Shown here piece by piece: positions 21,453-34,456 of a DNA stretch of 64,000 nt; within the stretch, counting starts at the first letter, position 1, and every line of letters starts with the position of its first letter. A model generated the notes under the pieces. The model did not search any database. It saw only the letters and a list, made by a program, of their open reading frames with translations, and had not been told where the DNA came from. A program made the translations under genes and the position numbers. Source of the DNA: Eledone cirrhosa (Eukaryota); contig OZ024746.1 in NCBI GenBank assembly GCA_964016885.1, forward strand, positions 20,522,001 to 20,586,000, in the 5' to 3' direction.

Positions 21453-21678
21453 TAAAGTGATATTATTGAAAAAATGAGAGGAACAATTAAAAAAAGGGGT
21501 ATTATAATGTATATAGAATATATATAAAATATATCCGGTTTCGATGTATCAGTGTAATCCATCTTATCAAATGTTGAATATTACATCGAAAACGGATATA
21601 TCTTATATATATTCTATATACATAATAAGACCCCTTTTAAAAAAAATTTTCCTCCCATTTTTTTAATAATATCACTTT
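21453..21678. repeat. Imperfect inverted repeat containing a degenerate hammerhead-like motif (minus strand, 21528-21575)
   Basis: Arms aaagtgatattatt...atccggtttcgatgta and tacatcgaaaacggat...aataatatcacttt; minus strand reads TTGATAA-GATG..CATC-GAAA-CCGG. Confidence 0.75.
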
Positions 21679-22245
21679 TACGAATCAAAGATGTATTAAG
21701 AAAAACAGATCCTTTATATATATATTTCGTGCTATTTCCTATTTAACTTTTTCTCTATAACCTCTGTTTTGTATAGAACCTTACTTCCTTTATATATATA
21801 ACGGCGGCTAAGAAATACTTGAATTTGCACCCGCCTTCCTTCCTAGCTCAGTCAGATAATAATGTGAAGGATCTCTTAATATTTTATATACATATATTTA
21901 ACACACATACTAACGCAAACATAACCAAAACAAACACAGACACACACACAGAAACAGACACACACACACACACATAGATATATACGTACATATACATACA
22001 CAAATATGTGGTATGTATGTATTGATATATGTGCATACTATACATACATCATAAACATATACTCACATATATATATATATATATATATATATATATATAT
22101 ATATATATATATATATATATATATATATATACATACATATATATACATACATATATATATACATACATATATATATACATACATATATATATACATACAT
22201 ATATATATACATATATATATATACACATATATATATACATATATA

Positions 22246-22531
22246 TATAAAGAAAAAGGGATGAAATCGAAAATGCAACTGAAGTCTTATTTTTTTAAAA
22301 AATATATATATTTATTTGGTTCCTTTACCGGTTTCGCAGTTCTTCTGCTTTTCAAAAGGTGAGTTGAGATGGAGGGTCTGTGGTTTTTAAAAACCACAGA
22401 CCCTCCATCTCAACTCACCTTTTGAAAAGCAGAAGAACTGCGAAACCGGTAAAGGAACCAAATAAATATATATATTTAAAAAAAAAATAAGACTTCAGTT
22501 GCATTTTCGATTTCATCCCTTTTTCTTTATA
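22246..22531. repeat. Near-perfect spacerless palindrome (143-bp arms) between (TA)n tracts
   Basis: Centre ttttt|aaaaa at 22388/22389. Confidence 0.97.
22418..22455 (+). ncRNA. Minimal hammerhead motif with U3/A8 variant core (mirror copy on minus strand at 22322-22359)
   Basis: cctt-TTGAAAA-gcag-aagaa-ctgc-GAAA-ccgg-TA-aagg; stems I and II perfect, palindromic ACCGGT stem III. Confidence 0.65.
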
Positions 22532-22914
22532 CTTCCACTCGTGTAGGACACCTCGGTTATTTTTCATTTTGTAAAAAAAAAAACCTCACTTTCTAACATA
22601 TATATATATATATATATATACATATATATATATATATATATATATATATATATATATATATATATACATATATATATATACATATATATATATATACATA
22701 TATATATATATACATATATATATATATATATACATATATATATACATACATATATATATATACATATATATATATATATACATATATATATATATATATA
22801 CATATATATATATAGATACATATATATATATACATACATATATATATATACATATATATATATATACATATATATATATATACATATATATATATATATA
22901 CATATATATATATA

Positions 22915-24027
22915 CTGTAGTTGAGGGAGTCAAATCAAGCCCAGCCAAAGTCAGTAGTGGAGTCCCACAAGGCACTGTGTTGGGCCCACTTCTCTTCATC
23001 ATCTATATTAATGACATCACTGACATCATCAAACACAGCAACATTAAAATTTTCGCTGATGATTCCAAGCTCCAAAAGGTCATCAATGGCGTGGATGACC
23101 GGATAAGCCTTCAGTCAGACCTACTGGCTGTTACCCAATGGGCAGAAAAGAATAACATGTTACTGAACGAAGACAAATTCGAACTGATCCACTTTGGAAA
23201 AGAGGATGCTCTGAAACTCCCGTACTCCCTTCCCTCCGGGGAAACTCTCGTGGCATCTAACAACATCAGAGACTTGGGAGTAACCGTGGACAGCAACATA
23301 AGCTGGACCACGCATATAAGCAGCAAAGTTGACATGGCCCGCAGAATGTGTTCCTGGATCCTCAGAACCTTCCAGTCGAGAGATTCCCGCACCATTATCC
23401 TTCTCTTCTCTACTTTCGCCCGACCACACCTTGAATACTGTTGTCCACTGTGGTCTCCCCACACGAAACAAAGTATCATGAAACTTGAAGCTCCTCAAAG
23501 GGCAATCACGAAAAAGATAGATGGCATGTCAGACCTTGACTACTGGGGTCGATTGGAAAACCTGAAACTTTACTCACTCCAACGTCGCCGTGAGCGTTAT
23601 ATTATCTGCATGATGTGGAAAATGTTCCATCATCACTGCCCAAATGATGTTGGCATCGCCTTCAAGATACACCCAAGGCCTGGGCCCCGTGCTATCCGTC
23701 CCATTCAAAAATCTAAATCGCAACTCATAACAACAATACGGCACAATTATTTCACCTCAATCGGCCCTGCTCTCTTCAACATCACACCAGGACACGTCAA
23801 AACAGAAACTGACCACACAAAATTCAAGAAGTCTTTGGACAAATTCCTCCAAGTAATCCCGGACAAACCACCCACACCCGGATATGTCTCCGCAAACAGT
23901 AATTCTCTTCTCGAATGGGCCATGGTGCCCAAATCCTGAATTGAAAGACTTCGCCAGGTGGTGCTATTAAGTTAGACATGGCCTGGGCCAATACTGGCCA
24001 AAACATTTCAAAGTTATTCAAAGTTAT
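22915..24027 (+). mobile_element. 5'-truncated CR1-group LINE inserted in (TA)n
   Basis: RT motifs [33 protein letters not shown]; short 3' UTR ending (ttcaaagtta)2. Confidence 0.9.
22917..23939 (+). CDS. LINE ORF2 reverse transcriptase, C-terminal part (5' partial, uninterrupted)
   Basis: Open frame [19 protein letters not shown]... to the stop at 23939. Confidence 0.85.
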
Positions 24028-24506
24028 ACATACATATATATATATACATACATATATATACATATATATACATACATATATATATATACATATATATATA
24101 TATATACATATATATATATATATACATATATATATATATACATATATATATATACATATATATATATATACATATATATATATATATATACATATATATA
24201 TACATACATGTATATATACATACATATATATATACATACATATATATACATACATATATATATACATATATATATATATATATATATATATATATATATA
24301 TATATATATATATATATATATATATATATATATACATACATATATATATATATACATACATATATATATATATACATACATATATATATATATACATATA
24401 TATATATATATATACATACATATATATATATATATACATACATATATATATATATATATATATACATACATACATATATATATATATATATATATATATA
24501 TATATA

Positions 24507-24820
24507 TATTGTTATACTTTGGGAGGGTCATGTTGCCAATAAGAAACACACGCACCAGTTCCTTTCACTTCAATTTATTATAATAAATTTATAAATTTAG
24601 GAATTTATAAATTTCCAGTTGGTTGGTTGGTTCCACAACCAGATGGTTGTTTATATACATATATGACAATATATAAACAACCATCTGGTTGTGGAACCAA
24701 CCAGCCAACCGGAAATTTATAAATTCCTAAATTTATAAATTTATTATAATAAATTGAAGTGAAAGCAACTGGTGCGTGTGTTTCTTATTGGCAACATGAC
24801 TCTCCCAAAGTATAACAATA
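24507..24820. repeat. Inverted repeat (~151-bp arms, 12-bp spacer) next to (TA)n
   Basis: 24507-24657 versus 24670-24820, near-perfect. Confidence 0.95.
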
Positions 24821-32199: not shown

Positions 32200-32391
32200 T
32201 CATCCTCATCATTTTATGTTCGCTTTTCCCTGCTTGCAAGGGTTGGACGGGTCCTATTCAGCACAGCATCTCTCCACTTGTCACGGTCCTTCGTCATCTC
32301 CTCGGTGAGTTTCAGCGATCTGAGGTCTGCTTTCACTACCTCCGCCCATGTTTTTCGTGGCCTACCTCTACTGCGTCTTCCTTCTACTGGG
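32200..32391 (-). mobile_element. 3' end of an RTE-type LINE
   Basis: VEGRRSRGRPRKTW.E.VK.DL...DRDKWR, then a short repeat tail. Confidence 0.8.
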
Positions 32392-32723
32392 ATATATATA
32401 TATATATATATATATATATATATATATATATATATATATATATCTATATATATATATAAGAAGCAAAGAAAATTTCCATGATACGTAAGGTGTACTCTGG
32501 GTTGGTATCCAGTTTCGGGGTGAAAATCCAATTAGAAAATCCTAACGCACACACACACACACACACACACACACACACACACACACACACACACACACAC
32601 ACACACACACACACACACACACACACACACATATATATAAGTTTATCCCGTGTTCAATCGGGGGTAACTACAGTAAGTAAGGTACTCAATACATAGCAGA
32701 GTATAAATATTTAATATAGAAAT

Positions 32724-32774
32724 GGCTTCTACAGGACTAGAACTGTTTCATTCGGGAAAAATCATCAGGAAGCC
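32724..32774 (-). ncRNA. Type-I hammerhead ribozyme motif with an adjacent inverted partial copy (32774-32811)
   Basis: ggcttc-CTGATGA-tttttcccgaat-GAAA-cag-ttctagtc-ctg-TA-gaagcc; 6-bp stem I, stem II weak. Confidence 0.65.
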
Positions 32775-33320
32775 CTGATGATTTCTCACGAATGAAGCAG
32801 TTCTAGTCCTGAGAGAGAGAGAGAGAGAGAGAGAGAGAGAGAGAGAGAGAGAGAGAGAGAGAGAGAGAGAGAGAGAATGTAAGACAAGCGGAAAGGAAGA
32901 AAAACGGGGATCAATCAGAGTGGATGAACCGTCATCTAGAATGTGATATAAAAATGTCGCAGAATATTATCAGAAGTGTATGCTGGTATAGCGAGAGAAG
33001 AGGTCTACAGAATCTATAAATAAATACAAATTTATGATATCAAGAAGTAAAGAATTTTCAAGTGTAATGGAAGAAACCAAACAGTATCTAAGGCGAATGA
33101 CACGTTTATACAACTCAGTCTAAATTGCTTTATTCAAACAGAAACTATCCTTTAAGATACGACAGTAAGAGACAATTTATAGACAGGCTTGTGAGACAAA
33201 TCATTCAGACGATAACTATGAAGAACTACTGCACACTATAAAAATAATAATGTATATCGATATATCGATGAAAGAACCAACGACCAACAACTGCCGTTTA
33301 TCAAAAATGGAACACAGTGG

Positions 33321-33705
33321 ACATCCAATCCAATCAAATCAATTTAATCCATGGCCTTCTCACTCCTGTTGAAGGAACCCCTCACTGGTTGGCCTCCACC
33401 ACTTACTGTTTGGTTTTGTTTGTGTCAGGGGTATAACTGTATTCACCACGTTTGGCAAGGAGGCAATTTAACCCATAGTTGGGATATATATATATATATA
33501 TATATATATATATATATATATATATATACTATATTTACATGTCCAATCCAATCCAGGGTCTTTTTACTCCTGGCGGAGGAACCCCCCCCCCCGTTGATTA
33601 ACTTCCACCTCTTACTGTTTGGTTTTGGTCATATAAAGGGGTGTAGCTGTACTCACCATGCTTGGCCAATTGCGGGTTAGTGAGGTTATTTAACCCTTAG
33701 TTGTG
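33321..33705. repeat. Two diverged direct copies (~160 bp) separated by (TA)n
   Basis: tccaatccaatc...actcctg..gaaccc...cttactgtttggttttg...atttaaccc.tagttg occurs twice. Confidence 0.7.
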
Positions 33706-34147
33706 GAAGATAGCCTTTGTATCTGAGGAGTTCATCTGCTCTTTTAACAGACCTTTGTTTTTTTTTTGTGCTGCTGGGGTTCCACTTACTCTCCTCACCG
33801 GATCATGGTTTGGCGAGGGAGGCGGTTTTTCGTCGCCGACCACTCGACCAGGAAGCAGGTTTTACTGGGTTACACGGTGCCAGTAACAGGCAGAAGCCTG
33901 ACTTGACTGTGAACATAAACACACAAACTTTAGCAATGCTAACCTTTCCCTGTCTAAACCATCATATTACGGTGAAAGCTGAAGGCCTAAAAAGCAGTTT
34001 TGATTTGTAATGAATGAGTGTGGTCAACATAATCGTTCATCTAAAATACTACCAATCCATCGTCGTTGATATATATATATATATATATACATACATACAC
34101 ACATATATATATATATATAAAATTAGAATTGGTGCTCTGAAATAGCG

Positions 34148-34456
34148 ATATATATATGAATGTATATATAGTGTATTTTGCAATACACTGTATGCTTAAT
34201 TAAAAGCATTTCAAAGACCTTACGCTGTTGTTTTAGAGTAGTGACAGTCTCACTTACTTTAAATTTTCATCAAACAGAGGAGATAAAGCCGACAGAGCTC
34301 TGTTTCGTACTTTTTGGTACTTATCAAAGCTAAGTACTCCAATAGTGTAAGTGAGACTCTCACTACTCTAAAACAATAGCGTAAGGTTTTCGAAATGCTT
34401 TTAATTAAGCATACAGTGTATTGCAAAATACACTGTATATACATTCATATATATAT
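34148..34456. repeat. Inverted repeat (~110-bp arms, ~90-bp spacer)
   Basis: 34148-34257 versus 34347-34456. Confidence 0.93.
34287..34331 (-). ncRNA. Minimal hammerhead motif with U3/A8 variant core, in the inverted-repeat spacer
   Basis: agct-TTGATAA-gtac-caaaaa-gtac-GAAA-cag-agct-ctg-TC-ggct; all three stems form, GUC cleavage triplet, palindromic stem III. Confidence 0.7.

Follow-up and report, generated by a model that had tools for sequence, protein, structure and literature searches.

U3-A8 hammerhead motifs in doubled-back insertions of Penelope-like and retrozyme-like repeats in the Eledone cirrhosa genome

We analyzed a 64,000-nucleotide stretch of the Eledone cirrhosa genome (contig OZ024746.1, positions 20522001-20586000; hereafter the window), which lies in a 3.0-Gb animal genome that is A+T-rich and microsatellite-rich and whose repeat landscape looks octopod-like. 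The window contains three fold-back modules with hammerhead ribozyme motifs, in which core positions 3 and 8 are occupied by U and A instead of C and G. We designate these modules, and the repeat families to which they belong, A, B and C; L numbers (e.g. L143, L213, L146) denote loci drawn from the same genome. The modules and their motifs are as follows.

34119..34464, minus strand: Module A, doubled-back insertion of a 316-320-bp retrozyme-like repeat
34287..34331, minus strand: family A U3/A8 type I hammerhead motif, U3 at 34327, site GUC
22246..22597, plus strand: Module B, two inverted 5'-truncated 3' ends of a Penelope-like element inside (TA)n; parent copy L143
22418..22455, plus strand: family B U3/A8 hammerhead motif, U3 at 22422, site GUA
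22322..22359, minus strand: exact mirror of the family B motif, U3 at 22355; full pairing with the other copy predicted on read-through
21454..21800, no strand assigned: Module C, two 3' ends of a related Penelope-like family, joined in inverted orientation
21528..21575, minus strand: degenerate family C U3/A8 motif, U3 at 21570

All four motifs have the U3-A8 pair and the core boxes NUGAnNA and GAAA. Three helices and an NUH cleavage site are present at 34287 and at 22418/22322: the motif at 34331-34287(-) has a 4-bp stem I with one U-G wobble, a 4-bp stem II and a 12-nt palindromic stem III, and the 22418 motif and its 22322 mirror have a 4-bp stem I, a 4-bp stem II and a 6-nt palindrome as stem III. 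The 21528 copy retains the core and stem II and lacks the full set, with A at position 16.1 (21534) where family copies have U, and a stem I of 2 bp plus a mismatch. A preliminary description of this stretch had placed the motifs, their U3/A8 cores and their sites exactly where we find them, and its view of 21528-21575(-) as degenerate agrees with the lost U16.1 and 2-bp stem I. The motifs have G10.1-C11.1 and a palindromic 15.2-16.2/loop 3 region. The extra 9/10.1 base and a 7-8-bp helix II are absent from families A, B and C, which have a stem II of 4-5 bp and resemble atypical variants from Penelope-like elements (PLEs) with a small palindromic helix III.

A descriptor scan of the window that permitted any base at positions 3 and 8 returned four matches: the U3/A8 motifs at 22422(+), 22355(-) and 34327(-), and a weak C3/A8 match at 42487(-) that we rejected as chance, its stem II being only 1 bp. 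Under a looser rule (core, GAAAC and a stem II no shorter than 4 bp), we found four U3A8 and two C3G8 matches and no U3G8 or C3A8 match, compared with means of 0, 0.005, 0.005 and 0, respectively, in 200 block-wise dinucleotide shuffles. An Rfam scan of the window (E<=1) gave no hammerhead family among the best 150 of 199 matches; these were microsatellite- and hairpin-driven and nearly all to microRNA models.

All three modules are 5'-truncated doubled-back insertions with the two-ended "tail" signature of Penelope elements. In Module A, the hammerhead arm reaches the family end at +208 and the mirror arm ends at ~+179/187, with (TA)n flanking both sides. Module B is centered on 22388/22389, with arms ending at +98 and about +160-165 (tail), and the plus arm of Module C (21582-21800) is 5'-truncated within the ribozyme. 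In the genome-wide count, the first 100 U3A8 matches include 19 opposite-strand pairs within 1 kb, all joined by their 5' sides (counted by eye). In each family the arms stop at two fixed points: these are +98 and +165 for 20 of the 26 inverted B pairs (the rest combine 165 with 45-77, or are 165/165), about +179 and +205 for 18 of the 23 inverted A pairs, and mostly +188 or +234 for C. Passages of PMC8557442 describe for PLEs an inverted 5'-truncated copy with the tail at one end, and this tail has been tied to two reverse transcriptase (RT) start sites (PMC11167929). The two fixed 3' end points of each family match the published PLE tail.

We identified the parents of modules B and C. Module B is 87% identical over 212 nt to the 3' end of L143, a decayed element with an inverted 3' copy on its 5' side and an open reading frame (ORF) that contains a CX4CxxC linker and matches both GIY-YIG (E 5e-7) and RVT_1 (E 1e-6). 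The Module C motif was found again in most of 18 other loci examined, and in L045 it lies downstream of an RT piece with 80% DNA identity to L213. In both parents the motif is preceded, on its own strand, by an RT with a GIY-YIG endonuclease at the C terminus, and both show the tandem and inverted 5'-truncated copies, one-ended tail and (TA)n targets of endonuclease-positive (EN+) PLEs. Protein identity between L143 and L154 is 55%, and the two have the same stem III palindrome in their motifs, so families B and C are related. The motifs at 22418 and 21528 mark the 3' ends of two related PLEs encoding RT and GIY-YIG. The stems of the three modules had been described as unrelated; this does not extend to the 22418 and 21528 families, with their shared palindrome and related parents. 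CX2-5CxxC-type linkers are present in these proteins, a protein search returned 1,651 RT+GIY-YIG relatives with no names that help to assign a clade, and our RT trees contain sequences of this genome only; the labels Neptune-type and Nematis-type are provisional and follow linker motifs and general patterns rather than a tree with reference elements.

The sister family, which includes L154 and L213, is young, with intact 777-aa ORFs. The best 150 of 22,217 candidate matches are 98-100% identical, and ~33 of these 150 lie inside 777-aa open frames (counted by eye). A U3/A8 motif is found within the flank in 28 of 30 loci of this family, and in L213 units of 4,843 bp follow one another head to tail at 99.7% identity, every unit containing a U3/A8 motif and a 777-aa ORF. 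In L213:306-3817, a 421-aa ORF1 runs into the 777-aa RT-EN frame with a -1 overlap, and a U-UUU-UUA heptamer lies at ~1505-1511; a +1 reading of this junction was considered and rejected, and the -1 overlap agrees with the PLE ORF1 frameshift given in the legend to Fig. 1 of PMC8557442.

Family A is of a different kind, a non-coding, retrozyme-like tandem. Its monomers measure 316 bp in L146 (6 motifs) and 320 bp in L180 (3 motifs), with a G+C content of 33-34%, and they show the features of retrozymes without long terminal repeats (non-LTR retrozymes), namely 170-400-nt tandem monomers, G+C content <45%, one type I hammerhead per unit and no ORF. An exact family A-type pattern occurs 4,680 times genome-wide against 12 in the control, and most of these matches are family A. 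At L175:8421-9999 we found a 310-bp tandem that is homologous to family A along the whole monomer and has a C3/G8 core and A10.1-U11.1. Family A likely uses Penelope enzymes, since it shows the two-end-point PLE layout. We considered and discarded a link between family A and a PLE piece in L160, since the PLE there comes with a C3/G8-type motif of its own and family A forms a separate insertion. A second retrozyme-like family is present in L169 and L170 (G000:C1:5738331-5752439), as a long head-to-tail array of 466-bp units with ~31 motifs, a canonical C3/G8 core and a 7-bp stem I.

We counted exact patterns of equal form for each core across the genome, on both strands and with a reversed-pattern control. 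The two paired cores stand 25-27x above control, with 29,969 U3A8 matches (control 1,189) and 14,559 C3G8 matches (control 531), whereas the unpaired cores are at 1.1-1.3x, with 672 U3G8 (control 534) and 751 C3A8 (control 688). By eye, many of the listed single variants are point-mutated copies of paired families. C3G8 with an extra base at 9.1 contributes a further 64,655 matches (control 8,498), and a C3G8 family with a long stem II and A10.1-U11.1 is missed by most of these patterns. C3G8 is the majority core genome-wide and U3A8 makes up roughly 30%; a CUGAnGA descriptor would therefore miss ~30% of the hammerhead-like motifs here (~29,000 above control vs ~70,000 C3/G8). In an unbiased sample of 60 evenly spaced 10-kb stretches (600 kb), analyzed together with shuffles, we obtained 43 matches: 26 C-G, 14 U-A (two of which look like chance), 2 U-G and 1 A-C; in the shuffles no class averaged more than 0.7. 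A stricter descriptor left 16 matches: 8 U-A, 7 C-G and 1 C-A.

The stems of these motifs covary. Across six homologues (five family A sequences and L175), 66 of 66 cells are paired and 7 of 11 pairs are changed on both sides, 3-8 included; slid alignments used as a control pair at 18-40%. Folded U3A8 motifs show eight different stem III palindromes, in a set whose selection filter had demanded a palindrome. On several points these data confirm the preliminary description: U3/A8 is commoner than the single changes both genome-wide and in the window, exceeding its reversed-pattern control in the former and shuffled sequence in the latter, stems covary between family A and its C3/G8 homologue, and the double change is compensatory, with single changes near background and the 3-8 partners changing together. 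Its proposal of Penelope-derived or retrozyme-like parents is likewise upheld, two modules deriving from PLEs and one from a retrozyme-like tandem.

The same description envisaged a single lineage with the variant core, which our data do not support. Two more U3/A8 families (L158, L157, L149 and L107; L248, L243 and L244) lie behind a different kind of PLE ORF. An assignment of the family named E to the L108 element was dropped, as this family is continuous with L248, L243 and L244. The L248 RT (U-A) is sister, with support of 100/98, to that of L163, a repeat-flanked C3/G8 element. Forcing the four U-A RTs into one clade costs 74.6 log units and is rejected in an approximately unbiased (AU) test (p-AU 9.8e-5) on the 9 rows with a checked link or checked family; the other 24 rows of a 33-row tree were excluded. 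Labels in that tree went by proximity, and those of L141, L105, L108 and L153 came from unrelated neighbors. U3/A8 is found in at least three lineages, two of which have a close C3/G8 relative. The RT tree and the pair of family A and L175 point to at least three separate 3-8 switches, in the L143/L213 group, in L248 and in family A. Each switch may have run from C3-G8 to U3-A8 or back.

We examined predicted folds of the modules and motifs. Module B is predicted to form a single hairpin of -231 kcal/mol with the entire motif paired to its mirror, and in Module C the GAAA box and stem III are predicted to be taken up by pairing with the mirror arm. Only in Module A does the motif stay in the fold-back loop, unpaired by the mirror arm. 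The mirror arms would thus block the window copies of B and C and leave them inactive where they stand. Stem III self-duplexes score -20.1 kcal/mol for family A and -8.3 kcal/mol for families B and C, consistent with the dimer model set out in passages of PMC4209133. As monomers, the hammerhead folds score less well than alternative folds (A, -6.3 for the core stems only vs -17.3 kcal/mol; B, -0.4 vs -7.5 kcal/mol).

Taken together, the evidence makes it probable, in our judgment, that these motifs are type I hammerheads with a compensatory U3-A8 pair, located at the 3' ends of two related PLE families and of a non-coding 320-bp tandem, and that they cut multimeric precursor RNA to unit lengths. 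In such a mechanism, tandem copies would be transcribed, and the palindromic stem III would bring two motifs together for cleavage after GUC or GUA; a family A monomer would perhaps cleave too. The Penelope RT/endonuclease, starting at two sites, would copy the RNA into (TA)n, and copying that stopped early would leave doubled-back fragments, the window copies being such by-products. The change between C3-G8 and U3-A8 would have occurred at least three independent times, because positions 3 and 8 would accept either Watson-Crick pair. In every lineage the change affects both partners, and unpaired families have not been amplified, which suggests selection on catalysis.

Several points weigh against this account. 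The genome-wide motif figures reflect the copy numbers of a few families rather than independent events, and the covariation alignment is limited to six related, hand-picked sequences. The RT tree has long branches and no outside reference sequences, and the AU test followed a first look at it. Across 25 family A loci, we found no RT or EN match continuous with the monomer and no autonomous partner. Stem I of family C and of L213 has only 2 bp plus a mismatch, and the L213-type hammerhead fold is unfavorable at +6.2 kcal/mol, against -9.0 kcal/mol for the minimum-free-energy fold. PLE minimal hammerheads have been published as weak cleavers, dimers included; catalytic mutants of the anole PLE hammerhead, which required protein, had no effect on insertion in vitro (PMC11167929); and, according to passages of PMC8557442, Naiads and most Chlamys PLEs thrive without hammerheads, and hammerhead parasitism of PLEs has been suggested. 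The observations on stem I, on folding and on published PLEs would fit motifs that, in the autonomous families B, C and L213, are weak or dispensable hammerhead derivatives, hitch-hiking at the 3' end or providing, close to the RT start sites, a signal of a structural or protein-binding kind, with U3-A8 reached by A+T-biased drift. Unselected drift, however, would leave amplified U-G or C-A families, and the counts of both are near control; the joint change of the 3-8 partners and the retention of the family A core while its stems covary also argue against this explanation, which we regard as unlikely.

Elements that exchanged their 3' ends could give the appearance of independent switches. 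A single U3/A8 origin followed by spread of a 3' ribozyme module among lineages would draw on the tendency of PLE insertions to nest and form chimeric tandems, and the short 3' ends have no reliable tree placement; yet each U3/A8 motif is closer to its own C3/G8 relative than to other U3/A8 motifs, and we consider this origin improbable. Chance matches might be expected in an A+T-rich, fold-back-rich genome, where UUGAnAA is likelier than CUGAnGA and fold-backs duplicate any motif. Set against the 25-fold genome-wide excess, the absence of U3A8 from 200 window shuffles, the covarying stems and the fixed position downstream of PLE ORFs, chance has next to no standing as an explanation. A bolder extension of the catalytic account is that PLEs and their retrozyme passengers use the 3-8 pair for tuning and have switched it repeatedly in a single genome: at least three independent lineages, among them an autonomous family that is currently amplifying and a retrozyme whose sister has C3-G8, would have chosen U3-A8 with a longer palindromic stem III and no 9.1 base, giving a cleavage regime that favors amplification. 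We think this rather doubtful; were it true, the U-A/C-G sister pairs would be natural matched controls for the role of the hammerhead in PLEs.

The window also contains at least four C3/G8 motifs, at 13947(+) and 39800(-) and, by eye, at 20780(-) and 21218(+). One of these lies in an element that provides an internal control:

39620..41810, minus strand: broken Penelope-like element with RT, linker and GIY-YIG-like end; C3/G8 minimal hammerhead at 39800

This element ends in a small terminal fold-back and its family is shared with L102. The C3/G8 minimal hammerhead at 13947(+) has an extra 9.1 base and belongs to a multi-copy family. A further fold-back, at 20673-21325, adjoins Module C; its 277-nt arms are 96% identical, by eye each bears one hammerhead-like C3/G8 motif whose long stem II closes with an A-U pair, and the fold-back is multi-copy, with matches in 41 loci (3 overlapping the window). 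The hairpin at 24604-24723 is what remains, in doubled-back form, of the 3' end of the C3/G8 PLE family that is most abundant (as in L117), and accounts for an Rfam MIR837 score. A 34-bp minisatellite of ~146 copies occupies ~49020-54000, and three non-LTR retrotransposon RT fragments of different kinds lie at 22900-23939(+), 56483-59235(-) and 60791-63875(-), two of them matching Pfam RVT_1.

The U3-A8 variant, its Penelope home and the doubled-back layout are all already published, and the surprise to a specialist is accordingly small. The idea that the variant had gone unrecognized finds no support, as a U3-A8 descriptor is in print for Schistosoma PLEs (PMC4209133) and so are natural U3-A8 cores (PMC3088659). 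Our literature search on U3-A8 gave these two papers only, and the supplements of PMC4209133 may list further cases; with most subscription papers and supplements outside its scope, the search listed no result on hammerheads from cephalopod genomes and none on a genome in which the 3-8 pair had switched repeatedly. Perreault et al. (2011; PMC3088659) state that C3-G8 covaries to U3-A8 in several natural hammerheads and that these are active in vitro; the covariation is the same as here, and the passages concerned do not deal with PLE-borne, dimer-type motifs. In Schistosoma mansoni, the text of Cervera and De la Pena (2014; PMC4209133) on Cercyon PLEs describes a U3-A8 variant of minimal hammerheads in ~1,300 copies. 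The E. cirrhosa motifs share with it the core covariation, type I topology, G10.1-C11.1, palindromic stem III region and position at PLE ends, as well as mostly truncated copies and opposite-strand pairs, which lie 100-700 bp apart in that account. They differ from Cercyon as described there in number (~30,000 copies here), in a stem II of 4-5 bp rather than 7-8, in lacking the 9/10.1 extra base, in a stem III of 6-12 nt, and in occurring in several PLE lineages and a retrozyme-like tandem.

Family A resembles the metazoan non-LTR retrozymes described by Cervera and De la Pena (2020; PMC7229834) in its ~300-bp non-coding tandems, G+C content <45%, one type I hammerhead per unit and coexistence with PLEs, and differs from them in its U3-A8 core, long palindromic stem III and many doubled-back copies with a PLE tail. 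Li et al. (bioRxiv 10.64898/2026.07.22.740005) argue that such retrozyme-like repeats derive from PLEs. The parents of modules B and C resemble EN+ PLEs of the Neptune and Nematis clades, as outlined in passages of Craig et al. (2021; PMC8557442): the RT is followed by a Zn-finger-like linker and, at the C terminus, by GIY-YIG, copies are tandem or inverted with 5' truncation and have a tail, the targets are (TA)n, a hammerhead lies close to the 3' end, and a frameshifted ORF1 is optional. The tails here are ~27, 46 and 62-67 nt, against 30-40 for published EN+ PLEs, and the same passages call the role of the hammerhead in Penelope elements unclear. What the E. cirrhosa genome adds to these systems is a genome-wide count of paired against unpaired cores, an intact young U3-A8 element and two natural U-A/C-G sister pairs, and the element and the sister pairs are available for direct comparison.

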